A DNA stretch of 64,000 nt from the IMG/VR virus record IMGVR_UViG_3300046355_000046, positions 22,458 through 86,457 of that record; one strand, written 5' to 3'. The notes under the pieces are model-generated. The model ran no database searches. It was not told the DNA's origin and saw only the letters and a program-made list of their open reading frames with translations. Below, piece by piece: positions 7,172 through 24,100 of the stretch (position 1 is its first letter; each line of letters starts with the position of its first letter). The translations under genes were made by a program, and so were the position numbers. This DNA comes from a virus.

Positions 7172-7531
7172 ATGAAATTAAGTACTACCATAAAAATACC
7201 AACGTATAGTTGTAAGCTCATAGTGGTAGTGGTGGAAAGTGTATCTGTAGCAGCAGAGAAACTTTACAAGAAGTACAAGATTAAAGATGATTTTGGAGGA
7301 GAGGCTGAAGGAGCTTTAGTAATACCAGATATAGATAATTACTATCTTTTACTAGGTGATCAGTTCTTAACTCATAATACAATTGCCCATGAACTTTATC
7401 ATGCTGTAGTTAGAATAACAGAAGATAGAGATATAACAGATGAAGAGGCACAAGCTTGGCTGGTTGGTCATCTTACTGGAGAAATATATAAATTTTTGGA
7501 CAAGAAGAAGTTAGTAATTAAACATGGCTGA
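7172..7531 (+). CDS. Small zincin-like (HExxH) metallopeptidase-fold protein
   Basis: IAHELYHA plus downstream DEEAQAW. Confidence 0.7.
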   Translation: MKLSTTIKIPTYSCKLIVVVVESVSVAAEKLYKKYKIKDDFGGEAEGALVIPDIDNYYLLLGDQFLTHNTIAHELYHAVVRITEDRDITDEEAQAWLVGHLTGEIYKFLDKKKLVIKHG

Positions 7532-10500
7532 AAATACACAGAACCCTACATCTACCACTAACCTTTTTAATAAGGGTATGGTTAAGGATTACAATGAAAC
7601 CTTCGTTGGTGAGGGATTGTGGACACATGCCCGTAATGCTGTAAACAACTCACATGATGGTCAGATAGGTGTTATAGGTAATGAACCATCTAACTTACAT
7701 TGTGTAACTCTTCCTTATACAATGATTGGTTGCATACATCTAACAGATGATATGTGGGCCATCTTTACCACTGATGACGTAAACTCTGAGATTGGTATCT
7801 TTGATGAGAGCCAATGCTCTTATACAAAAAAGGTTAATTCTCCTTGTTTAAACTTTAAGCGTTCTAATCTTATTACAGGAACTAGTCGTAGACGTTATGA
7901 CTGTGAGCGTCCTGTGTATTGGTCTGATGGATTAAATCCAGACAGATTCATGGACTTAGAAAATCCTCCTTTTAAATATACAGAATCTATTAGTAACGGA
8001 TGTGTAACTAAACTCTATACTACAGAACTTAACTGTGAAGAGATTCGTTTAACATCTCTTATTACACATCCTTGTATTATTCTAGAGAAAGGTAAAGCTA
8101 GTGGTACTCTTCCTAATGGATCATACCAAATAGCTATTGCTTATACTATTAATAAAGTTAAGGTATCTGACTACCTTGGTTTATCAGAAGTACAATCATT
8201 GTTTAGCCATCAAAATCTTAGTTCTTCTTTAGAAGTAAAGATTACTACAATAGATAAAGATTTTGAAGAGTTTGAGTTAGTTATACTAGCTCAGATTAAT
8301 GGTCAGACTATTGCACGTAGAGTTGGCTACTACTCTACTAATCAAGGAACTATTTATTTAGATGCTCTAAGTAACGACTTTGAGACTATACCTATTTCTC
8401 AGATTGTTGTTAGAACAGAACCTATTGAAAAATCTGATGCTATTTACACGGTAAATAATTACATGTTACGTGTAGGTACATACAGTAAGACTAAGTTTAA
8501 CTATCAACCGCAAGCTAATAGCATTCAAGCTAGATGGGTTGCCGTTGAGTATCCTGCTAACTATTATGTAAAAGGTGGTAATAACACTGGTTACATGAGA
8601 GATGAACAATATGCATTCTTTATTAGATGGGTATATAACACAGGAGAACGTTCTGAGTCATATCATATTCCTGGTAGAGTGGCTATGTCTACTGATACAG
8701 CTTTAGCTAATGGTACAGATGCATATGAAAATCAAGAAGGCATTCAGTTAGAGAAGTGGCAAGCAAGTAATACAGCTACTGTAGAGACAACTACTCCTTC
8801 TGTATTAGCAGATGGTGGACGTGTTGTAGCTAAAGGTAAAATGGGTTATTGGGAATCTACAGAATTATATCCTTCTAATAGAGTGGATATATGGGGCAAC
8901 CTTTGTGGTCAACCAATTAGACATCATAAGTTTCCTGATGTTACAATTACTGGTGGTGATGTAGTTAATCACTTTACTAATGATGGTAATAACATTGTTA
9001 TCCTAGGTGTAGAGTTTCATAATATTACTAAACCAGTTGATGTTAACGGAAATGTTATTACGTCAATTGTTGGGTACGAGGTATTACGTGGATCAAGAGA
9101 AGGACATAAGACTGTTATAAGTAAAGGATTGATTAATAACATGAGAGAATACTCTGTTCCTAATCAGACTAACATTACTGGTTTATATCAGAACTATCCA
9201 TTTAACGATTTAAGAGAAGATAGTTATTTAACTTCTCAAGAGCAATTAGGTGATAATGGTGGTCCTGATGCTAGTTCAAGTAAGTTAAATGGATACAAGA
9301 AAGATGTTCTATCATTCCATGGACCTGATGTAACTTTTAGCACACCTTATTTAAGTAGTAGTGAAGTAAAATTATATCAAGAGATTTATGGTGAATCTAA
9401 TGGTAGATTTGAAACTCCATATAAACATCCTAAGTTTAAACTTCCAACAAACTTTACAGATTTATTAACTAATGTTTTAGCAGCAGTTGCTACTATAGCA
9501 AAACTTGTTGGTGCATTAGCTGGTGCAGATACTAAAGTAGAATTTCAAGGAACAGATGATATTCCATTAACACAAAGTTTACTTGCTCCTCATAGAGCAG
9601 AAGCTATCTCAGGAGCAATCTTTGGTTTAGCTAATGGATGGATTGGTACAACTGGTATTGTTGGAGGTAATGAAGCAGCATCTGTTAAACGTACATTTGC
9701 TAATAGTGCAATTACTGTAGCTAATGCTGTTGTGTTAGGTGCTATGGCTACTATACAAATAGATGTTACTTCTGAACAATTCATGAAGTTAATCTTAGCT
9801 ATTATTCCTTATAAACAATATGCTGCACAATATGTAGCTCATGGTTACTATAATAAGTCTAGAACAACATTAGAAGGAAATAGAAGAAGAAAGATTGTTG
9901 AGTCTAGTTATGTAAACTCTGACATTCAGTCGTTTACTGCTAACTCACAAAACTACATGGTTAATAACTTTAACCGTGGAAAGTTTGTAATAATTAAGAC
10001 AAACGCTGATGTAAATAATCCAACTACTGTAGATAACAGTAGATTCTTGATTAGTGAAAAAGATGGTTCATTATATTCTACTTACCAAAGTACTGTATCT
10101 GGACATTATGGGGCGTTAAAGATATCTCTTCCGTCACAGTATGGTCAGTTAGATAGTTTAAAACAAATACCTATTTCTTTCTGTATAGAAGATGTAACTA
10201 CATCTAATACTACTAAGATAACATCTAATGTTTATTTTGGTGGTGATGTGTACATTAACAGATTTACAGAAAAGAATAGCATGTTGTTTTTTAACACATG
10301 GTTATATGGTGAGCCTAATGGTGCAGAGTTAGATTATACTATGTACTTTAGCATGCCTTATCCTAGATTCTGGATTAATAACACTAATCTATCTGGAGGA
10401 TTATTTAAACTAGCAAGTCAGTTTAGAGTGTTAGATCATAGAAAGTCTAGTACATTCCATATCAGTAGAGGATACTTTTATTTATTTAACTCTGGTGTAC

Positions 10501-12143
10501 GTGACTTCTTTGTAGAATCTGAAGTAAATGTAGCCTATAGAGATTGGGAAGATCGTCCAGAAAAACGTCACTATGATAATAACGGACTAACTGATTTAAG
10601 TACTTTATTTAGATCAGATGTAATTAAAGAACCTAACTACTATAAATATGATTACTCATTAAGTGTATCTAAGTTATTTAACTCACAGATCACTTGGGGT
10701 AATGTGCTTGATAGAGACTTTGATCCTAAGAAAGCACAGACTTGTTACAGCTATTATCCTAATAGAGTTATTTATTCTCTTCCACAACAAGATGAAAGTA
10801 AGAAAGATAACTGGAGAGTTTATCTAGCTAACAACTATAAAACATTTGGTAGCCGTGTTACATCAATTAAGTCTGTTAATAAAACAGGTGCTTTATTTAT
10901 GATGGCTTATCAGAGTCCTATGCAGTTTATGGGTGTAGAGGAACTTAAGTTAGATGGCACTGGTGCTAAGATTACTATTGGAGATGGTGCATTGTTTAGC
11001 GGTCCACAACAACTTCAAGCATTAGTAAATGCTGATGAATCATTTGAGTATGCATCATGTCAAAGTAAGTATGCTACATTAGGATGTACGCATGGTGTAT
11101 TCTGGGTAAGTCAGAACCAAGGAAAGATATTCCAGTATGCTGGACAGCTTAAAGAAATATCTAGAGAAGGAATGAAATGGTGGTTTGCTAAATACCTACC
11201 TTCTGAATTACTTACTAAGTATCCTAATTATCCATTGTACGATAACCCTGTAAAAGGTGTAGGGGTACAGATGACGTATGACAATACTAATGAGATAATC
11301 TATATCACTAAGAAAGACTATAAGCCTTTATTTAATGATATGGGTCACGATGCTGATGGTAAGTTTTATAGAACTATTAATGGTCTTAAGACATACTATG
11401 ACTTTAATAATCCATTAGCATTTGAGAATGCATCATGGACTATTAGTTATGATCCAAAGAATCAAACATGGTTATCATTTCATGACTGGAATCCAACGTT
11501 TGTGATTCCAGGAAAGGCTCATTTCATGAGTGTGGATACCAACTCTATATGGAAGCATAATGTACGTTGTGATTCTTATGCAAATTTCTATGGTAAAGAC
11601 TATCCATTTGAAGTGGAGTTTATCTCAGCTACAGGCCAGCAGGTTAACTCAGTAAGAAACATTGAATACTTACTAGAAGTATATAAGACGCATAATAACT
11701 GTGCAGATAAATTCCATGTACTAGATCAAAACTTTGATCAAGCTATTATTTCTAACTCTGAGCAAGTGTCTGGTTTACTTGAGTTAAACGTAAAGCCTAA
11801 AAACAATCCTGTTGCAGCTTTATCTTATCCTCAGATTCAACCTAACTCTATAAAGATATTATTCTCTAAAGAAGAAAATAAATATAGATTCAATCAGTTC
11901 TGGGATATAACAAAGGATCGTGGTGAGTTTAATACTCTTACTAACCAGTCTATGTTTATCACAAAAGCTAATGGTTACCAGTATGAGATTAATCCTCAGT
12001 ATGTTGATTACGGTAAAGCAGCTTTAGAGCGTAAGAAGTTTAGACATCACGTAAATAAAGTATGGTTAAGAAAATCAAAGAGTGGTGATCTAAAAATGTT
12101 GTTTAAGATATCTAATCAAAAGTTAACAGTATCACATAGATAA
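7524..12143 (+). CDS. Tail stabilisation / muzzle (nozzle) protein
   Basis: 1539 aa. F.KGM.KD N-terminus, YMRDE.YAF.I.W, FGGDVYINRF and WTISY...W.SFHDW motifs of crAss-like tail stabilisation proteins. Synteny. Confidence 0.8.
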   Translation: MAENTQNPTSTTNLFNKGMVKDYNETFVGEGLWTHARNAVNNSHDGQIGVIGNEPSNLHCVTLPYTMIGCIHLTDDMWAIFTTDDVNSEIGIFDESQCSYTKKVNSPCLNFKRSNLITGTSRRRYDCERPVYWSDGLNPDRFMDLENPPFKYTESISNGCVTKLYTTELNCEEIRLTSLITHPCIILEKGKASGTLPNGSYQIAIAYTINKVKVSDYLGLSEVQSLFSHQNLSSSLEVKITTIDKDFEEFELVILAQINGQTIARRVGYYSTNQGTIYLDALSNDFETIPISQIVVRTEPIEKSDAIYTVNNYMLRVGTYSKTKFNYQPQANSIQARWVAVEYPANYYVKGGNNTGYMRDEQYAFFIRWVYNTGERSESYHIPGRVAMSTDTALANGTDAYENQEGIQLEKWQASNTATVETTTPSVLADGGRVVAKGKMGYWESTELYPSNRVDIWGNLCGQPIRHHKFPDVTITGGDVVNHFTNDGNNIVILGVEFHNITKPVDVNGNVITSIVGYEVLRGSREGHKTVISKGLINNMREYSVPNQTNITGLYQNYPFNDLREDSYLTSQEQLGDNGGPDASSSKLNGYKKDVLSFHGPDVTFSTPYLSSSEVKLYQEIYGESNGRFETPYKHPKFKLPTNFTDLLTNVLAAVATIAKLVGALAGADTKVEFQGTDDIPLTQSLLAPHRAEAISGAIFGLANGWIGTTGIVGGNEAASVKRTFANSAITVANAVVLGAMATIQIDVTSEQFMKLILAIIPYKQYAAQYVAHGYYNKSRTTLEGNRRRKIVESSYVNSDIQSFTANSQNYMVNNFNRGKFVIIKTNADVNNPTTVDNSRFLISEKDGSLYSTYQSTVSGHYGALKISLPSQYGQLDSLKQIPISFCIEDVTTSNTTKITSNVYFGGDVYINRFTEKNSMLFFNTWLYGEPNGAELDYTMYFSMPYPRFWINNTNLSGGLFKLASQFRVLDHRKSSTFHISRGYFYLFNSGVRDFFVESEVNVAYRDWEDRPEKRHYDNNGLTDLSTLFRSDVIKEPNYYKYDYSLSVSKLFNSQITWGNVLDRDFDPKKAQTCYSYYPNRVIYSLPQQDESKKDNWRVYLANNYKTFGSRVTSIKSVNKTGALFMMAYQSPMQFMGVEELKLDGTGAKITIGDGALFSGPQQLQALVNADESFEYASCQSKYATLGCTHGVFWVSQNQGKIFQYAGQLKEISREGMKWWFAKYLPSELLTKYPNYPLYDNPVKGVGVQMTYDNTNEIIYITKKDYKPLFNDMGHDADGKFYRTINGLKTYYDFNNPLAFENASWTISYDPKNQTWLSFHDWNPTFVIPGKAHFMSVDTNSIWKHNVRCDSYANFYGKDYPFEVEFISATGQQVNSVRNIEYLLEVYKTHNNCADKFHVLDQNFDQAIISNSEQVSGLLELNVKPKNNPVAALSYPQIQPNSIKILFSKEENKYRFNQFWDITKDRGEFNTLTNQSMFITKANGYQYEINPQYVDYGKAALERKKFRHHVNKVWLRKSKSGDLKMLFKISNQKLTVSHR

Positions 12144-14632
12144 TGAACAAGCTATTACAATATATGATTGGTGCAGGTAATGTATCAGATAAGTTTCTTC
12201 CACAGCTTACTAAAGCTCAGAAAGGATTTACTGCATTACCTACTTTCCAAAAAGCTGGACAGGTTCAAACAAAAAAACCTATTGTAGATCCTAGAGTGTT
12301 TCCTCAAGAGACACTTGCTAATAGACAAAAGGTTTATAAAACTGTAAGACCAACAGATTATACTGATCTAAAAAATTATATCAGATACGTATTTAATAAT
12401 GAGAGAGATGAGTATGATGATGCTCGTAGTGAGGAAGCTTTTAAGATGTATTTAGGTTTACAACCTAAACCAGAATACTTTAGACCTTCTAAGTATAAAC
12501 CTACAATAAACGCTGATCCTAATGGTTTTTATTATAGTGCAGATCAACAGTTAGAGCAAGATATATTTGATAGCTTTAAAGATAAAGTAAAGCCAGGTCA
12601 AATCATGCCTACTGATGAATATTTTGTAAATAGTTATTTTCCTGGTAACCCAAATGCATTTTGGGAAGGAGATAAACAGATGGTTAAGTTTGGACCTAAT
12701 GATGAAAATCCATTTGTGGGTAGACCAATGGTTAGTCGTGCAAGAGCTTTAGGTAAGTTTGTGGTTAGTAGAGGTTCTGATAATCAAGGTGATTATTTAT
12801 CTTATGCTGATCAGTATGATTTTCCTAAAAAGCTTCAAGATAAAATGCAAGGACAACCATATAAAATCTATGGTAGAGTTTACTATCCAAAAGATAAAAA
12901 AGCTTATGGTGGCTTTTTTAAACAAGGAGGTGGACAAACTGTAACTAATCCTTTCTGGGAAGGCTCGTATGATTTTAAACCAATTAACCAAGGTACAGTT
13001 GATGAGATAAAATCTGAAATGGCTGGGTATATTCAGTCACCTTTGTATGCACAAAGACAGGCTATGCATCCAGAAAGATATATAGGTAATAATCTTAGTT
13101 ACTATGAAGACCCTAAATCATTCCAAAATTCTACAGCTTCTGCTAAAAGATCATATAGATTAATGGATCTTTATGATCAACCTACTCAGATTAAAAACAT
13201 TGGAAAGTTTAAGGATTACTATGATCCTAAGAAAAGAAAGACTGTGTTAAACAGTTCTAATTTAGAAAGTGTTGTAGCTCATGAGCTTGGTCACTCTTTA
13301 TTCAAAGGTGAAACTTTAAGTACAGTTTTAGATTCAGACTATGATAATAGTAAATATTGGGATGACTTAGCAGCTGGTAATAAAACTAAATTTGGTACTT
13401 CTTTAAATAAAGCAGAAGTTGATAAGTTTAAAAGTTTTGCTTATCCTATAGCTAATGAAGACGAGCACTATGATAATAGAGGGTATGGAGATTTTGCTAA
13501 TGAGTCTTATGCTGACTTAACAGGTATTAGACATTTGTTATATAAGAATGGAATTACTAAGAAGTTTGGTGATAATATTAACAGAACTATTTATGAAAAA
13601 GCTTTAAAGAATAAGCAGATTCAGAATGACCCTGTATTTAAAAGAATGCAGCAGAAGTATAGCCCTGGTAAAATCATTCTTCTAAATAACACTATTGCAC
13701 AAAATACTGATACTAAATCAGATCCAAACATGGCTGAATATGGTGGACCTATCTTAGATTCTCGTGGTCAATGGGCTCATCCTGGTAAAGTAACTCGTAT
13801 ACCTGGATCTAATATCACTATGCAAGGTGTTAACTATCCTGTATATGGTGTAGGCTCTAATGGTCAACAACAGATGATGCAGCCAGGGCAAGAATATAAC
13901 TTTGGTGGTGCATCTTATGTAGATGAGTATCCTATAATGCAGAATGGTGGTTTACTAAGCAGATCTGTTACTTGTTCTAATTGCGGATGGTCATGGAAAG
14001 CTATAGATGGAGGTCATGATCCTATGACATGTCATAAGTGTGGAGGTGCTGTTAAGATGCAGGGTGGGGGAACGGCTTATGTTGATTCTGTACTAAATGC
14101 TAACAAGAATCTTAATTGGGTGCAAAGACTATATCCAAAGAATACACCTTCTATGCAGATACCTGGAGTAAAAGGGCCTAGTACACATTATATGCAAAGC
14201 GGTGATGGTCGTGTATATCCAACAGTAGTACAAACGCCTAATGGTTCTTTAAAGTATTTAGGTAAAGATGCATTTGATTATGCAGACTCTACTAAGACTT
14301 ATATACAGTTTCCTTCTGATGCTGCAGCAACTTGGTTTGGTGAAAATTATAAAAAAGGAACTGGCGTGTTACCAAAGAATGCATCAGGCGGTCAACATGG
14401 TGGATTAGATAGATGGTTTGCAGAAAAGTGGGTAGATGTTAAAAGTGGTAAAGCATGTGGTAGACAAGAAGGAGAAAGTCGTAAAGGTTATCCAGCATGT
14501 CGTCCTTCTAAAAGAGTAAACTCTCAGACACCTAAGACATCATCTGAAATGAGTCCAGCAGAAAAAGCTAAATTTAAAGCTAGTAAAACTAGCAGTGAAC
14601 GTATATCATATAATCATAAAAGAAATAAATAG
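12143..14632 (+). CDS. Modular putative virion cargo polyprotein (zincin, Zn-ribbon and DUF5872-like modules separated by xxxGG motifs)
   Basis: AHELGH...NESYAD, CSNC...CHKC and GLDRWFAEKWVD...CRP modules. Repeated xxxGG motifs at module borders. Confidence 0.6.
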   Translation: MNKLLQYMIGAGNVSDKFLPQLTKAQKGFTALPTFQKAGQVQTKKPIVDPRVFPQETLANRQKVYKTVRPTDYTDLKNYIRYVFNNERDEYDDARSEEAFKMYLGLQPKPEYFRPSKYKPTINADPNGFYYSADQQLEQDIFDSFKDKVKPGQIMPTDEYFVNSYFPGNPNAFWEGDKQMVKFGPNDENPFVGRPMVSRARALGKFVVSRGSDNQGDYLSYADQYDFPKKLQDKMQGQPYKIYGRVYYPKDKKAYGGFFKQGGGQTVTNPFWEGSYDFKPINQGTVDEIKSEMAGYIQSPLYAQRQAMHPERYIGNNLSYYEDPKSFQNSTASAKRSYRLMDLYDQPTQIKNIGKFKDYYDPKKRKTVLNSSNLESVVAHELGHSLFKGETLSTVLDSDYDNSKYWDDLAAGNKTKFGTSLNKAEVDKFKSFAYPIANEDEHYDNRGYGDFANESYADLTGIRHLLYKNGITKKFGDNINRTIYEKALKNKQIQNDPVFKRMQQKYSPGKIILLNNTIAQNTDTKSDPNMAEYGGPILDSRGQWAHPGKVTRIPGSNITMQGVNYPVYGVGSNGQQQMMQPGQEYNFGGASYVDEYPIMQNGGLLSRSVTCSNCGWSWKAIDGGHDPMTCHKCGGAVKMQGGGTAYVDSVLNANKNLNWVQRLYPKNTPSMQIPGVKGPSTHYMQSGDGRVYPTVVQTPNGSLKYLGKDAFDYADSTKTYIQFPSDAAATWFGENYKKGTGVLPKNASGGQHGGLDRWFAEKWVDVKSGKACGRQEGESRKGYPACRPSKRVNSQTPKTSSEMSPAEKAKFKASKTSSERISYNHKRNK

Positions 14633-14640
14633 TATTTAAA

Positions 14641-15858
14641 ATGGCAAACAAACCTAATAATCCTGCCTTATGGTCTAGAGCTAAGTCTATGGCCAAATCT
14701 AAATTTGATGTATATCCTAGTGCCTATGCTAATGGATGGGCTGCTAAGTATTATAAAAGTAAAGGTGGTACTTGGCGTAAAGCTGAATACGGTATGGAAG
14801 TAATGGGTGATGGTGGTACACCAGATAACCCTGGCTTTAATGCTTTACCTCCAGCAGTACAACAAAAAATCATAGATAATATGGCTCAAGGTGGAGAGAA
14901 GATGCCACCAGAGATTGCTCGTGCACGTTTTGCCGCAGCTGGTAATCTTGATCAAATGAGTAACTATGGTTATGCTTATGGAGGATATATTCCAGAAATG
15001 ATGTATGGTGGATATGATTATATGGAAGAAGGTGGAGAACCTAACGGTGGAATGGCATTAGGTCAGATGTCAGCAGTTGCTGATAAAATGAGTAGACTAC
15101 GCCAATTTGTTTCTCCAGATCAAAACTTAGATCCATGGATTGCTTCTAAGCTTGCTGTAATTGATGATAGCGTAAATAGTATTTCTGATTATATGATGTA
15201 TAATCCTGAAGCTCAAGGAGGAGGTGGAGAAAAAATGGGAGAGCAGTATGAGCAAGAGGATATGGAAGAAATGATGGCTAATGGTGGATACGTTGTTACA
15301 AGAAGTAATGATCGTAAAGGTAAAACACATAAAGTAACTGGTCCTGATGGAACTGTTAAATACTTTGGTGATTCTAAGTTAGGTCAGCATCCTAAAGATC
15401 CAGAACGTAAAGCAGCTTTCTATGCTCGTCATAAAAAGAACTTAGAGAATAACCCTTTCTTTAGAGCGTTTGCTAGAAAGACGTGGAAAGAAGGCGGTTC
15501 TACATTTAGTGGTAATGCATTCTATCAAGGTGGTGGATTTATTCCAGAATATGATATGTCATTTCCAGCAGACTATGCTGTAGAGATGATGGAACAAGGC
15601 GGTATCCATTTAGATCCATCTAAGAGAGGTACGTTTAAAGCTCAGGCTACTCGTATGGGTATGGGAGTACAAGAAGCTGCTTCAGCAATACTTGGTGCAC
15701 CAGAAGGAAAGTATAGTCCAGCTATGAGGAAAAAAGCTAACTTTGCTCGTAACTTTGCTAAACAAGCAGGTGGTCCTGTAGAAGGTGAAGTAATGGATGT
15801 ATCTCCAGAAGAATTAGATATGCTTCGTCAACAAGGTTATCAATTTGAAATAATGTAA
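14641..15858 (+). CDS. Modular putative virion cargo polyprotein with about 10 xxxGG motifs
   Basis: KFDVYPSAYANGW, LDPWIASKL, YFG..KDPERKAAFYARH and GIHLDPSKRGTF..RKKANFARN modules between GG motifs. Confidence 0.6.
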   Translation: MANKPNNPALWSRAKSMAKSKFDVYPSAYANGWAAKYYKSKGGTWRKAEYGMEVMGDGGTPDNPGFNALPPAVQQKIIDNMAQGGEKMPPEIARARFAAAGNLDQMSNYGYAYGGYIPEMMYGGYDYMEEGGEPNGGMALGQMSAVADKMSRLRQFVSPDQNLDPWIASKLAVIDDSVNSISDYMMYNPEAQGGGGEKMGEQYEQEDMEEMMANGGYVVTRSNDRKGKTHKVTGPDGTVKYFGDSKLGQHPKDPERKAAFYARHKKNLENNPFFRAFARKTWKEGGSTFSGNAFYQGGGFIPEYDMSFPADYAVEMMEQGGIHLDPSKRGTFKAQATRMGMGVQEAASAILGAPEGKYSPAMRKKANFARNFAKQAGGPVEGEVMDVSPEELDMLRQQGYQFEIM

Positions 15859-15860
15859 TT

Positions 15861-18725
15861 ATGAAAATACGTATTGTAAAGAAGGAACTACCTAAAGCTC
15901 AAACAGGTAATACACAAGAATCTACTCAAAGATTTTGGCATTCTGAATGGGATGATCAAGGGTTTGATACAGATCCAGCTTCACCGTTATATCAGCCAAA
16001 TACGCAACAAGCTGCTAAAACAAAGAAACCTTTATTTAGTCAAGCTACTGTAAAGACTGCTAATAATATTTCGGACTGGGCAGATGTTGCTCTAATGACT
16101 GGTGCTGCAGTAGACTACTTTGGTCAGAACCAAAAGCTTAAAGATTATGAAAGAGCTTATAGACAAAACCAGTTTGATAATCAGGTAGTTAGTCCTATGT
16201 TTAGAGGTAATACTGAAATCAATACTGGTAGGTTCCGTGAGAATGTAACACGTAAACCTAATGAAGGTATGTTTCAAATGGGTGGAGAAGAGAACTTTGC
16301 TAATACAAGTAATATGATAAAGATTAGAATAACTGGTAAACCAGAAAACTTAGAGTTTGAATATGGTGGTCAAAATGGCTACGGTTTAGATCTTGGACAA
16401 CGTAGAGTACAAACTGAAATGCCAGCTGGTAAAGCTGATTCTGTTTCAAGTAGTATTGGAGCAGTACCACGCTATGCTGCTAATATAGAAGCAGAAGGTG
16501 GTGAAACCGTATATGGTGATATAGATGGAGATGGTGGTTTAGAACATATGACTATTAACGGTAAGCGTCACTCTCAAGGCGGTGTACCTCTTAATGTACC
16601 AGAAGGCAGTTTTATTTTCTCAGATACTAAGAAAATGAAAATCAAAGATCCTTCTATTCTAACTATGTTTGGTAAGTCTCCTAAAGCTGGTGGATATACT
16701 CCTGCAGAGATTGCTAAGAAGTATGACATTAATAAATACAAAGCTATTGTAGAAGATCCTGAAGCAGATGAAATATCAAAAGCTACAGCTCAATTGATGC
16801 TTACTAACTATCGTAAGAAGTTATCATCTTTAGCTCTTGTACAAGAAGAGATGAAAGGTTTTCCTCAAGGTATCCCATCTGTTGTAGAAGGAGCAAAAGA
16901 TCAAATGCTAATAGCTGCATATGGTGGTTATATTCCTGAGTATCAGTTAGCTGGTCAAGTAGTAGATCCATTAAACCCTTATCAGATCTTTCCTCAAGCT
17001 GCTGAGTTAGCTCAACAACAAGCATTGTTACAAGATTTAGATAGACGCCAAGCTGCTTCTAAACCTACACGTGTTCCTGATGCTAATGAGATCACTGATC
17101 AAACTTTATCACCTAAGTCATTAGCTGATGTTAATGATCCAGAGTTTGCTAAGTATAAACAACTATTAGAGAAGTATGATACTAAACTTGTAAAAGGTTC
17201 TTACAATATTAACTCTATGTCAGCAGCTGATGCTAAAGATTTTGCTCGTTTATCTGGCAAGTTTGGCTTTAGTAGAAAAGATCCAAAGGGTGGCAAGATG
17301 TATAATGTTATTCAAAGCTCAACACCTGGTTTAACTTTTAAAGGAAGTAAAGGTAAGAAAGCTGGTTTCTTTGGTGGATATAGCCCAGATATGTATGAAC
17401 GTAGATTGGTAGAAGATAGTTTAGGAGAAGATGCTGTAAAGAATATGAGTGAATTGGATATTCGTAAAGCATACTTTAAAGAACTAGGTGTAGATGTATC
17501 TAACTTAAGTGATGAGCAATTAAAAAATAAGAAGAGTCTTTATGCTAACAAGAACTTCTTTGAAAAACAATTCTATCCTAAGTTTGCTGATAAGTTTGTT
17601 GGTGATCAATACCGTACTCAGTTAGGTGATGACATGATGATTGGTGCTGAGCACTATGATAGTTACCGTACTAAACCTAAGATGGTTCCTGGTAGATCTC
17701 CTATTGGTTATAAATGTACTGGTGTAGATGATGCTGGTAATCCTATGATTATTGAGTCATCTTACATGGATGCTGAAGCTATGGCTGCTGATGGAGCCGT
17801 AGGATCAAGACAAGCTGCAGCTATGCAGTGTGCTGGTAGTATTACACCTAATCAGATTACTCCTGGTAAAACTACTCCTAGCAAAGCTGGATTCTTAACA
17901 CCTGATAAACTAGCATTGTTAACAGCTGGATTAAATCCACCTCAAGCGTATCTTCCTTCTGTAGCAGATTTACCATACAGACAAGGTGATTTGGCTTTAG
18001 AAGATTGGTTATCAAAAGCTCAGCAAAGACAGCAGACATATAATATTGCAGCTAATACTTTAGGTCAATATCAACCTGGAACTGCTATGGCTTCTAATCT
18101 TTCTTTCTTAGCAGGACAAACTGGTGAAGGAGTATCTCAAGACATTGCTCAAACAGATTCTCGTAACGTAGATAGAGCTAATCAGTTTATGGCTCAAGAG
18201 TTACAACGTAAGACAGCTAATGATGCATATAATGCTGCAGCAAGAGATAAGCGTTGGGAAGGTTTTGTAACAACTAAACAAAACTTAGACAATGCTCGTA
18301 GAAAATACTTAACTGGTATTACACAAGCAGCTAATAATGCATTTGCTAATAGAATGTATTTAGATATGGTTAATAAGGTTAATCCTATTTATAACGTTGA
18401 CCCTACAACTGGACTATCTTTCTTTAAAGAAGGATATGATGCTAGTAAGCTAGGAGCTCCAGGGTTTGCAACAGCTTCTTCTAATATAGGACCAATGGCA
18501 CAATTTCCTGCTTTAAAAAATCAGTATCTTCGTTTAGGAATGACTGAAGCTAACGCAGAGAAACAAGCCATTTCTCAATTATCTGGTGGAAGAACTACTT
18601 ATTCTGATACAGACAATGATGGTATTCCTAACACTACTAGAACTACAATGGCTCAACAAATGCCAGGTATGTATAGAAATGCATTTGGTTTTAATATAGG
18701 TGGAGTAGTTGGACCGTGGAGATAA
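15861..18725 (+). CDS. Putative virion cargo/ejection protein
   Basis: NIEAEGGETV..G.RHSQGGVP module, GG motifs and a Gln/Ala/Asn-rich helical C-terminus. Lies between the muzzle and RNAP genes. Confidence 0.6.
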   Translation: MKIRIVKKELPKAQTGNTQESTQRFWHSEWDDQGFDTDPASPLYQPNTQQAAKTKKPLFSQATVKTANNISDWADVALMTGAAVDYFGQNQKLKDYERAYRQNQFDNQVVSPMFRGNTEINTGRFRENVTRKPNEGMFQMGGEENFANTSNMIKIRITGKPENLEFEYGGQNGYGLDLGQRRVQTEMPAGKADSVSSSIGAVPRYAANIEAEGGETVYGDIDGDGGLEHMTINGKRHSQGGVPLNVPEGSFIFSDTKKMKIKDPSILTMFGKSPKAGGYTPAEIAKKYDINKYKAIVEDPEADEISKATAQLMLTNYRKKLSSLALVQEEMKGFPQGIPSVVEGAKDQMLIAAYGGYIPEYQLAGQVVDPLNPYQIFPQAAELAQQQALLQDLDRRQAASKPTRVPDANEITDQTLSPKSLADVNDPEFAKYKQLLEKYDTKLVKGSYNINSMSAADAKDFARLSGKFGFSRKDPKGGKMYNVIQSSTPGLTFKGSKGKKAGFFGGYSPDMYERRLVEDSLGEDAVKNMSELDIRKAYFKELGVDVSNLSDEQLKNKKSLYANKNFFEKQFYPKFADKFVGDQYRTQLGDDMMIGAEHYDSYRTKPKMVPGRSPIGYKCTGVDDAGNPMIIESSYMDAEAMAADGAVGSRQAAAMQCAGSITPNQITPGKTTPSKAGFLTPDKLALLTAGLNPPQAYLPSVADLPYRQGDLALEDWLSKAQQRQQTYNIAANTLGQYQPGTAMASNLSFLAGQTGEGVSQDIAQTDSRNVDRANQFMAQELQRKTANDAYNAAARDKRWEGFVTTKQNLDNARRKYLTGITQAANNAFANRMYLDMVNKVNPIYNVDPTTGLSFFKEGYDASKLGAPGFATASSNIGPMAQFPALKNQYLRLGMTEANAEKQAISQLSGGRTTYSDTDNDGIPNTTRTTMAQQMPGMYRNAFGFNIGGVVGPWR

Positions 18726-21195: not shown

Positions 21196-24100
21196 ATGGC
21201 TGAAAATCTTTTTGAACAAGACTACTTATCCAACCTACCTGAAAATGCAATTGAAGGTGTGCCTAGTACAGAAGAGATGCCAGTTTATGACACTCCTGTA
21301 GAGGCACCTAGTTCTATTGATCAACCTGAGCAACAGATTGCTACTGGTCAAGAACCTCCAAGATCTAAATATAAATCTTATGATGAAGCTCTTAATGCTA
21401 TTAATGTAGAAGCTAATAGGGTATTTCCTCTTGCTAATGAATCTTGGATAGATCCACGTGTTGTACCATCTGAAACTGCTAAAAAATATAGAGGTACAAA
21501 ATACGGTTATATTTATGGTATAGATAATGATAACTTTTATGGTGAACAAGAAGGTGGATTTGCGACATTTGGTAAAGGTATAGCTAGACTTGGTCTTGGT
21601 ATTCTTACTAAGACTGGTGAAGGTATTGGCTATATTGGTGGCTTGCTTGACTCAGACAACTGGGATGCAGATATAATTACTAAGGCTTCAGATAATGGCT
21701 TTTCAGAAATATTTAGAAATATTGATGATAAAGCTAAAAATGATTGGCTACCTACGTATCAAGAAGCTGCAGATAGAAATAAAGGTTTTTGGTCAAAAGC
21801 ATTTACAGATGGTGATTTCTGGATGACAGATGCTGTAGATGGTTTAGCATTCCTTGCATCAGCGTGGATTCCTGGTCTTGCGTTAAGTAAGTTACAGTTA
21901 GGAGCTAACTTAGCTAGACTTGCTTCTGGTATGCGTGTGGGTCTTGGAGCTGCAGAAGCTGCTATTGAAGGAGCTGGTGCTGCTGTAAACTATACTAAGA
22001 GTGCTGCTAACGCATTTAGTAAGTTAGATAAGTTTAATGCTTGGGCTTTAGCTACTTCTTCAGAATCTATGTATGAAGCTAAAGCTGTTAAAGATAAGGT
22101 GATGGACTCTTTATCTTATGATGAGTTTGGTAGAACAAGATATAAAGAAGACGGTACTCCTTATACAGATGAGGAGAAGAAACGTATATCAGGAGCTGCT
22201 GCTCAAAATACTTTCATAATGAATGCAGGTTTATTGGCTGCAACAAATGCTATTGAACTTAAATGGTTAGGTCAGGCATTTGGTAAAGCTCCTGGCGTAG
22301 CTGGTGCTGTAACAGGTGCTGCTCAGTTTGGAGAAAGCATGGGAGTAAGAACTGCTACATCAGGTATTGAGCGTTTCCTTAACTCTAAAAAAGGTGCGTT
22401 TATAAGTGGCATTGGTCAAGGTGTTCTTGCAGAAGGATATGTAGAAGAGAATGGTCAGTTAGCTATTCAGAGAATTAACGAGGCTTACGGAACAAGTGGA
22501 CGTATGGCTGACTTATCTAATACTAGTGAAGTATTTAAACAATACTTTAAACAAACTGGAGATGCTTTAATGGGTAAAGATACAGAAGCATCTATTAGTA
22601 TTGGTATAGGTGGTATCTTAGGAGGTATTGGTGCCGGTGTTGGTGGAGTGAGACAGTTTGGTCGTGATCAAGCTGCAACTCAAGCTGCAGTTGAAATGTA
22701 TAATGCAGCTCAAGAGAACTGGCTTAAGTTTGGTAACATCTATAAAACTAAGTTAGTAGATAGTACTGATGCTGAAGGCAATCCTGTAAAAGTAGAAAAG
22801 GTAGTTTATGATGATAACAATCAACCAGTTCTTGATGAAAAAAGAATTGCTGCTGTTACATCATCATTTAGAGCTGTTAACTCTGCATTAGAAGAGTCTA
22901 CTAAAGTAGATGATAAGTTTAAGAAAGATGCATTAAGAGATACAGCATTTGCACAGTTTGTTATAGCACATATTAATGCTGGTGTAGAAGGAACTATTGA
23001 TCAGAAGTTAGATGCTGTTAGAAAGTCTGATCCGGAACAAATTGCTAAATTAGGTTTTGTTTTAGGTGAAGACATTGATACTCAGATCAATAGATACAAA
23101 GGACTAGCTGCTTCTATCATTAAACAGAACAAGTTAATGAATGCTGATATCATGTATGATGGTACTCAGGATGACGTAGCTCGTAAAAATAAAATGGTTA
23201 ATATGGCAGCTGAACAAGCAGCTTATAAGACTATTCTAAATGACCTGTTAACAGAAGTAACTGAAGTTAAGAATGATTTACTATCTACTGAGAACTCTTC
23301 GTTATCAGATGGTATTGTAGAACAACTTAATGAATATCAGTATAGAATTAAATCTCAAGAAGAAGTTATTGCAGCTATGCAAAAGAAAGGGTTTGTCACA
23401 AACCTTGAAACTGTAGCTCAAGAAGTTCTTGATGGTTTAAAGAAAAGCTTTGACAAGCTTCAAAAAGATAATGAGACAACTATTGCTACTCTTGAAAAAG
23501 ATGACAATGGGTTCTATAAATATGAGAAAGAAGATCGTAATCAACCTGGTGTTTCTGATAATCTAAATAAGAAGATCAAACTTAAAGGTGAGTTACAAAA
23601 TCATATTAAAGGTATTGGTTTAGAGTGGGCTAAGTATGCAGATACTATTAACGGTAAGGAGAACTTCTTACAGTCTTTATCTGATGAGATGCTATCTGTA
23701 GTAGATAGTCAACTTAAAGCTGAGGCTGCTAAACCTAAACCTCCAGTTGCTATAGCTCCTACACAATCAAAACTTTCTGTTACATATAAGACAGAAGATG
23801 ATGTAGAGATTACTACAGAGTTTGTAACTGGTGATATTTATAATTTAACAGATACTAATAGCGGAGAGGTTACTAAGCTTGAGGTAATGGCTGTCAATGA
23901 AGAAGATAGTAGTGTTACCATTAAGATCAATGATGGTGATCCTGCTGTAATTGATGCAGAAGAGTTAGCTACTACTTTAGCTAATGAAGGCTGGACAAAA
24001 CAAGCTGTAAAGAAGACTCGTAAAAAAGCTGTTAAGAAAGACGTAGATGAAGATGGTCAAGAAGAAACAGAAGAGTTAGAAGATAATGAAACCGTTACAA

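Follow-up and report, generated by a model that had tools for sequence, protein, structure and literature searches.

The Pfam family DUF5872 (PF19197; 116 profile positions, curated cut-off 27.5 bits) is modelled as one chain, in which an N-terminal part (N-part) precedes a C-terminal part (C-part). In the stretch of viral DNA analysed here, a 64,000-nt window covering positions 22,458 to 86,457 of IMG/VR record IMGVR_UViG_3300046355_000046, the two parts lie instead in two consecutive proteins, of 829 aa (p829, 12143..14632) and 405 aa (p405, 14641..15858), and in the order C-then-N. What, then, is this family, and what are the proteins that carry it in pieces? The window is part of an 86.5-kb contig that is ~66% complete and from which the head genes are apparently missing; coordinates below are those of the window, and all features described lie on the + strand.

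The products encoded along this strand measure, in order, 1539, 829, 405, 954, 792, 4242 and 1805 aa, so that p829 and p405 stand between a muzzle-like gene and giant genes resembling those of RNA polymerases. In crAss001 the order is muzzle gp44, cargo gp45 and gp46, and then RNA-polymerase-associated giants (PMC10172136). Because the two gene orders agree, we assign p829 and p405 to the cargo-protein slot of a marine crAss-like phage, as cargo 1 and cargo 2. Each of the two is a mosaic built from autonomous mini-modules, 45-80 aa in length; in p829 this can be followed from the list of open reading frames (ORFs), the positions of the Gly-Gly (GG) junctions through which its modules are strung, and the mosaic pattern across 57 related loci. 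Elsewhere the module families occur in up to three forms, namely free-standing small genes of other marine phages and gut Crassvirales, segments of multi-module proteins of T4-like cyanomyoviruses and, for DUF5872 and DUF5754, annotated proteins of giant algal viruses.

DUF5872 parts in the cargo genes and in other viruses

The C-part occupies aa 753-829 of p829 (14399..14629; net charge +11, isoelectric point (pI) 10.1) and reads GGLDRWFAEKWVDV..C..YPACRPSKRV..TPKT..EM.., with 35 invariant columns in alignment A2 and two Cys and one His invariant. The DUF5872 profile aligns with aa 722-816 over positions 20-110, above the cut-off (E 7.6e-15, 50-56 bits), and PHROG 23735 (81 positions) matches the same end of the protein. 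A TAG stop codon and an 8-nt spacer (14630..14640) then fall exactly between the C-part and the N-part, which comprises aa 1-59 of p405 (core aa 3-47; 14641..14817; net charge +9, pI 10.3) and starts MANKPNNPALWSRAK..KFDVYPSAYANGW..YKSKGGTW. Here the profile aligns over positions 1-45 with aa 5-50, just below the cut-off (E 8e-5, 19-23.6 bits); PHROG 27331 (50 positions) matches at E 4.5e-8, and tblastn links the N-part to T4-like cyanophages at E 1e-11. An earlier reading of this DNA, made from the sequence only, had quoted both stretches and matched them to the second and first halves of DUF5872-type proteins, placed in reverse order in separate genes. The quoted letters lie at these positions, and the profile scores (56 and 23.6 bits in Pfam, E 4.5e-8 in PHROG) bear out both the identity of the halves and their order.

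The Pfam envelope in p829 extends across a GG junction into PSDAAATWFGENYKKGTG (profile positions 20-45). This segment is the tail of another module, A5 (aa 644-752; 14072..14398), and merely mimics the DUF5872 N-part: an N-part belonging to p829 itself was considered and rejected, as a dedicated N-part hidden Markov model (HMM) gives it 5.3 bits and the segment is missing from relatives. Module A5 as a whole is missing in many relatives that retain the C-part, and in many relatives a Zn-ribbon module immediately precedes the C-part. Because the N-part HMM is weak upstream and a Zn-ribbon holds that place in relatives, p829 carries the C-part alone, and p405 the N-part alone.

The reversed order is shared by the relatives of p405. 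Of the 57 related IMG/VR loci, 38 lack both parts, 17 have the pair, C lying upstream of N in every case, and 2 carry only N; both of the latter are cut by a contig end, and no assessable locus has a single part. Twelve related loci share the boundary seen in the window (C-part, stop, few bases, MANKPNNP), other loci have the C-part inside cargo 1, and in one (L020) both parts lie within one 1256-aa ORF, again C then N. A similar picture emerged from the 150 best cluster representatives bearing a C-part. The C-part stands at the extreme C-terminus of a long protein in 88 of these, is followed by the N-part in a single chain in 31, is internal with no N-part in the chain in 24, and is a short stand-alone protein in 7; the order N then C within a chain was found in none. 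The gap between the fused parts is mostly 8-29 aa, and the linkers read '...GG-E-x-N-x-x-D-MANKPNNP' or '...GG...[M]K[S/E]GG-NVPTNP', so that the stop/start boundary of the window is replaced by an in-frame linker in the 31 representatives and in L020. The C-then-N order is thus a fixed, lineage-wide trait of crAss-like cargo proteins; its presence in 17 loci and 31 diverse fusions makes it an old arrangement, and not a local event. The C-N junction is conserved, and the window shows the variant of it in which a gene boundary separates the parts.

Outside this lineage the two parts are usually neighbouring genes. By tblastn against GenBank phages, the C-part matches Prochlorococcus podovirus P-SCSP2, roseophages CRP-2/7/207, pelagiphage HTVC203P and phage C72C1, with 67% identity over 79 aa (E 7e-29) to the stand-alone gene 22 of P-SCSP2. 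The N-part matches the T4-like cyanophages S-BM3, Sf-CH5/8 and P-TIM68, as well as C72C1 and CRP-207; matches thus extend beyond crAss-like phages, in podoviruses and T4-like cyanomyoviruses alike. C72C1, CRP-207 and P-SCSP2 each encode the parts in two distinct small genes, N then C. An IMG/VR scan with the C-part alignment returned at least 600 stretches, and in 74 of the best 80 loci, all marine, a separate N-part ORF lies upstream of the C-part ORF, adjacent to it in 70. Four of the remaining six loci are cut by contig ends and two are crAss-like with C before N, the only such cases among the 80. Many of the marine pairs overlap, in ATGA fashion or by a short stretch. In ~50 of the 74 pairs (for example L068:2835-3237, L075 and L093, within loci L065-L142) the C-part is read in the +1 frame, from an ORF that overlaps the N-part gene at its Lys-rich end (...AAG AAG TAG C...); either a GTG start within the overlap or a +1 shift at the stop would yield a product, which in the case of the shift would be an N-C fusion such as Pfam models. 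ATGA-type overlaps are seen in the other 23 pairs.

Five diverse loci were examined for their surroundings, and the N/C pair was found among head genes: between scaffold and major head protein, after the portal (L067, L085), between large terminase and portal (L141), before the large terminase (L082), and further along from the portal (L065). In P-SCSP2 the pair likewise lies between scaffold and capsid. Stand-alone C-part proteins number at least 931 (42-135 aa, 65-90% identity), the C-part matches 1172 clusters in a library clustered at 50% identity, and its clusters in the Atlas are viral, mostly Uroviricota. At least 6671 longer proteins carry the N-part, which occurs without the C-part in T4-like cyanophages. 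DUF5872 and DUF5754 proteins have been annotated in the giant virus CpV-BQ1 (PMC12085832), and a DUF5872 protein of the giant virus CeV-01B matches our N-part model. DUF5872 is a two-part unit that in most marine phages is encoded by two adjacent genes. The sequence-only reading had described the DUF5872 protein of the window as split and permuted; the reversal is real, but the split is the usual state in marine phages (74 of 80 contigs) and not something that happened locally.

Junctions and modules of p405

Short segments, either acidic or Gly-Gly, connect the modules, and those with Gly-Gly favour the context [M/Y/F]-[Q/K]-x-G-G. GG runs exceed expectation in p405 (13 observed, 5.3 expected, z 4.3), p829 (10 and 6.0, z 2.0) and p954, the 954-aa product (11 and 6.6, z 2.1); the enrichment is restricted to these three cargo-position genes, their neighbours having z of 0.3 or less. 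Over 1418 sites in 121 diverse proteins, Met is enriched 7-fold at position -3, where Met, Tyr and Phe are favoured and hydrophobic residues make up 51% against a background of 28%, and at position -2 Gln is enriched 4.7-fold and Lys is also enriched. In alignment A5, which includes p405, entire cassettes are inserted, deleted and swapped exactly at GG. The same positions also coincide with gene starts and ends. Stand-alone C-parts start MSL(K/R)RWF where cargo proteins read GG|L.RWF, the MANKPNNP start of p405 corresponds to GG|NVPTNP in L020 and L045, and in fused forms the equivalent of the p829 end runs on as ...GG. Homology ends at the Gly-Gly junctions and does not run across them.

A different motif frames the N-part in multi-module proteins of the T4-like type. 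There [LI]xE directly precedes it in 19 of 20 copies (for example IDE|KN, IEE|KN, LDE|KN and LEE|NN), against a background of 1.3% per residue. The T4 prohead protease gp21 cleaves at L/I-X-E and processes the basic internal proteins that accompany the DNA on ejection (PMC9026906). That modules are plugged into whichever linker system a virus uses, as had been supposed, fits with an N-part that has GG as its frame in crAss-like proteins but L/I-x-E in these.

Two further observations concern the junctions. Free-standing relatives of the C-part and of the p405 module B8 described below (gp_19788 of the gut phage cr10_1, P0006, P0012, P0016) have N-terminal leaders of 16-20 aa (20 aa in cr10_1), which end ...Y-x-x-G-G directly ahead of the module and resemble cleavable targeting peptides. 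The junction AYGGYIPE(M/Y) is nearly identical at 14980-15010 in p405 and 16923-16945 in p954, and a third copy, QGGGFIPEY, lies at 15529-15552.

Besides the N-part, p405 holds three modules with relatives elsewhere. The first, B4 (MALGQ...LDPWIASKL...DYMMY; aa 138-192; 15052..15216), is acidic (net charge -3, pI 4.3) and is predicted to form a helical hairpin. Its HMM matches the C-terminus of gene 170 of Synechococcus phage S-WAM2 (Kyanoviridae) at E 1e-14, confirming the likeness to T4-like phage proteins that the letters had suggested, and multi-module proteins of the T4-like type (P0143-5, P0147, P0163, P0212) at 1e-9 to 1e-13. The locus of a P0143 relative (L147) and S-WAM2 have cytidyltransferase, structural-protein and primase neighbours in common. 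B4 is followed by an acidic spacer (aa 197-216; net charge -6, pI 4.1).

The second module, B6 (KTHKV...FYARH; aa 217-286; 15289..15498; net charge +10, pI 10.2), has GG at either end in all of 23 contexts and is found in cargo 1 or cargo 2. The Pfam family DUF5754 (PF19058; 49 profile positions, curated cut-off 27.4 bits) is its consistent top match but a sub-threshold one: the whole profile aligns with the window copy at 11.5-12.5 bits, and weak matches occur in 13 of 23 relatives, with a best E of 0.03. The profile built from the B6 alignment (A1) nevertheless recovers and aligns P0141, which is annotated with PF19058 (hhalign probability 96.6%, E 4.9e-10, 60 columns), and a bona fide DUF5754 domain fills the B6 slot in the sister proteins P0208 (36.8 bits), P0220 and P0236. 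By these profile comparisons B6 is a remote DUF5754 relative, a diverged subfamily, and the resemblance noticed by eye holds in spite of the low Pfam score. Stand-alone B6 forms also exist (P0133, 68 aa; P0135). DUF5754 is reportedly named in a paper on polinton-like viruses as well.

The third, B8 (IHLDPSKRGTFKAQA...ANFARNFAKQ; aa 322-378; 15604..15774; net charge +7, pI 10.7; three helices predicted), shares 60-78% identity with small genes found in gut Crassvirales. The cr10_1 form, a gene of 75 aa (gp_19788, L143:5971-6198), lies between the 'peptidase' that follows the portal and the major capsid protein. The modules had been described as small and basic, which suits the four strongly basic ones (pI 10.1-10.7) and fails for the acidic B4.

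The protein ends in an acidic tail, B9 (PVEGEVMDVSPEELDMLRQQGYQFEIM; 15775..15855; net charge -6, pI 4.1), found at the C-terminus of all aligned cargo-2 relatives. PVEGEVMDVSPEELDMLRQQGYQFEIM is kept however much the middle cassettes differ; it is a candidate packaging or docking signal. Most relatives also have a Gln-rich helical cassette (GG-EQEQIMQLIQ...QQ...MAYGG) between B2 and B4, which p405 is without (alignment A5, columns 150-235; L010, L013, L016, L017 and others). Further cassettes in cargo-2 relatives such as P0166, P0251 and P0249 include DUF3597 (PF12200), YkuD (PF03734), PF26571 and DUF6321; the payload set therefore varies widely.

Module strings of this kind also occur in T4-like phages. 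The T4-GC_119 proteins of S-BM3 (L144:2021-3034) and P-TIM68 (L146:2608-3888), products of a cyanomyovirus core gene that adjoins the terminase genes, consist of an LRDWF..C..C segment, the DUF5872 N-part, PCWKGY..VPNCVP (seen in S-BM3) and DUF6321 (PF19846). In the T7-like P-SCSP2, DUF6321 is a separate small gene (gene 23, L002:3300-3554). The N-terminal LRDWF...C...C segment was considered as a relative of the C-part and set aside, as neither our HMM nor Pfam supports it.

Proposed processing and rival explanations

We propose, as somewhat more likely than not, that the modules are internal or ejected virion mini-proteins that would travel with the DNA, and that a maturation protease acting at GG probably releases them from precursor chains; once released, the basic mini-proteins may associate with nucleic acid or have an early role in infection. 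A virion location is suggested by the position of p829 and p405 after a muzzle-like gene and by the stand-alone DUF5872-part genes in head modules. For cleavage at GG as such we see close to an even chance, and an association of the basic modules with nucleic acid is put forward more tentatively. If GG is indeed cleaved, a gene boundary and a GG junction would be equivalent and the order of the DUF5872 parts would be irrelevant. A broader version of this proposal is less likely than not: some dedicated protease would cut marine crAss-like polyproteins after [M/Y/F]-x-x-G-G, freeing small basic proteins, and the same families (DUF5872 N-part and C-part, DUF5754, DUF6321, B4 and B8) would be internal head proteins in T7-like and T4-like phages, with DUF5872 and DUF5754 also in giant algal viruses, re-framed for at least two unrelated protease specificities.

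Several results weigh against this proposal. No match to Peptidase_C48 was found in the 86-kb contig, in which the head genes are apparently missing; other clan CE families were not searched. Likewise, no protease was found among nine ORFs scanned upstream of the window, a part of the contig that encodes tail fibres. The HExxH module of p829 was found by BLAST only in the three closest relatives (L006-L008). A phmmer search of p829 against PDB chains gave no relevant match and showed no similarity to the crAss001 cargo proteins, of which gp45 has been modelled as an intact chain across portal and tail (PMC10172136). Gly-Gly may be a mere flexible linker, and the N-part copies preceded by L/I-x-E are related to one another and therefore do not represent 19 independent events.

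Structure predictions were uninformative. The AlphaFold model of p405 is poor (mean predicted local distance difference test, pLDDT, 41.6), with disordered linkers, helical hairpins for the N-part and for B4 (helices 137-156 and 165-187), three strands and two helices for B6, and a small helical bundle for B8. The suggestion that the two DUF5872 halves might fold as one compact domain was examined in a natural C-then-N fusion, P0320, modelled from an alignment of 24 fused relatives. This model (pLDDT 54, predicted template modelling score, pTM, 0.31) has a moderately confident N-part (71-88, a two-helix hairpin) and a poor C-part, with no confident packing of one against the other, and thus gave no evidence for a common domain. 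Two alignments that mixed single-part and fused rows (A3 and A4) were misaligned by MAFFT, which placed N-part rows over the C-part, and were excluded from folding. Fold searches returned either helical hairpins of a generic kind (best Z 3.2 and 6.3) or matches to uncharacterised viral proteins that were driven by sequence, and no match hinting at DNA binding.

The main rival explanation is that the cargo proteins remain uncleaved, as beads on a string. GG would then provide hinges for unfolding and threading through the tail, and the C-part and N-part would clasp cargo 1 to cargo 2 head-to-tail, so ordering packaging or ejection. The crAss001 cargo is modelled as intact, partly unfolded chains ejected N to C (PMC10172136), and the linkers here are predicted to be disordered. 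The two parts co-occur strictly in assessable loci (17 with both, 38 with neither, 0 with one), 88 of 150 representatives end with the C-part, and elsewhere the parts form tightly adjacent, often overlapping gene pairs, which suggests a heterodimer. A plain hinge, however, has no need of the preference for Met, Tyr or Phe at -3 and Gln or Lys at -2, an inter-chain clasp is needless in the 31 representatives in which the parts are fused in frame, AlphaFold found no confident contact between the halves of the natural fusion (pTM 0.31), and stand-alone relatives have leaders ending in GG. We consider an uncleaved, clasped chain rather unlikely, though well worth keeping in mind.

Much less probable is a local break and circular permutation of one intact DUF5872 gene in the source phage. 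The Pfam order (N-part at 1-45, then C-part) does mean that single-chain N-then-C proteins must exist, and the window has the reverse order across a stop codon. But each part has a gene of its own in 74 of 80 marine viral contigs, T4-like cyanophages have the N-part without the C-part, C-then-N is common to 17 loci and 31 diverse fusions, and a single fold for both parts finds no evidence. That the likenesses arose by chance from low-complexity, Lys/Gly-rich sequence is hardly credible, even if the modules are short and compositionally biased and some Pfam scores fall below threshold: 67% identity over 79 aa to P-SCSP2 gene 22 (E 7e-29), 35 invariant C-part columns, HMM E-values of 1e-14 to 1e-30 and an hhalign probability of 96.6% refute it.

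Further features of the locus, known systems and significance

The cargo gene block follows, and is defined by, the 1539-aa virion structural protein in the muzzle-gene position (7524..12143), which matches PHROG 37948/15100 'virion structural protein' at E 1.5e-67. Its tblastn matches are structural proteins of Cellulophaga phages phi4:1 and phi17:2, Flavobacterium FPSV phages, the epsilon crAss-like csAssE-Sib and Leptolyngbya phage Lbo-JY46. It had no match among PDB sequences, and megablast of the region against GenBank phages gave none either. Within p829, the HExxH module (VVAHELGHSL; aa 265-535; 12935..13747) has a weak match to Pfam Zn_peptidase_2 (E 0.09), and a Zn-ribbon-like module (CSNCG...CHKCGG; aa 604-643; 13952..14071) has weak zinc-ribbon matches. 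The 'peptidase' of the gut crAss-like phage cr10_1 (L143:4667-5962), which adjoins the portal, has a HEISH motif with a loosely similar lead-in (LN..LE..HE..H); it has no peptidase match in Pfam, and its BLASTP similarity to the HExxH module is not significant.

The modules may be likened to the T4 internal proteins IPI-III, Alt and the prohead core proteins, which are small and basic, lie in the head, travel with the DNA and are freed by gp21 at L/I-x-E; the inner-body and ejection proteins of phiKZ and SPN3US belong to the same comparison group. N-part homologues in proteins of the T4-like type sit right after L/I-x-E, whereas the junction motif of the source phage is x-x-G-G. The literature searched yielded gene-table mentions only of DUF5872 and DUF5754, and nothing relevant on polyprotein-like Crassvirales cargo. 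Adenain of adenovirus and pS273R of African swine fever virus are clan CE cysteine proteases that process core and internal virion proteins at Gly-Gly-X. In common with their sites, the crAss-like junctions have a hydrophobic residue a few positions before Gly-Gly, although the adenain consensus has it one residue closer to the glycines. The crAss001 proteins C1 (gp45) and C2 (gp46) occupy the same slot, after the muzzle-like gene and before giant RNA-polymerase-like proteins, but no sequence similarity to them was found in the phmmer search with p829, and GG module strings are not described in the passages considered of the crAss001 report (PMC10172136). The Pfam families were known; what would be new is the cassette architecture with another junction motif, and the closest known counterparts are the processed internal head proteins of T4 and phiKZ.

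If the proposal is correct, several orphan DUF families would gain a context, as proteins of the head module or the virion interior in viruses that differ greatly from one another, and DUF5872 would count as a two-gene pair and not as a single domain. In a large, uncultured branch of crAss-like phages, the cargo proteins would be strings of cassettes where a Gly-Gly junction can stand in for a gene boundary and vice versa, and phage polyprotein processing would thereby be open to virion mass spectrometry. The system would also exemplify one module set fitted to two protease motifs, which would help to explain how proteins are loaded by phages and delivered into hosts. In its broadest form, the proposal would imply a pan-viral set of internal proteins associated with the genome, overlooked until now since every member is no more than a small 'DUF'.

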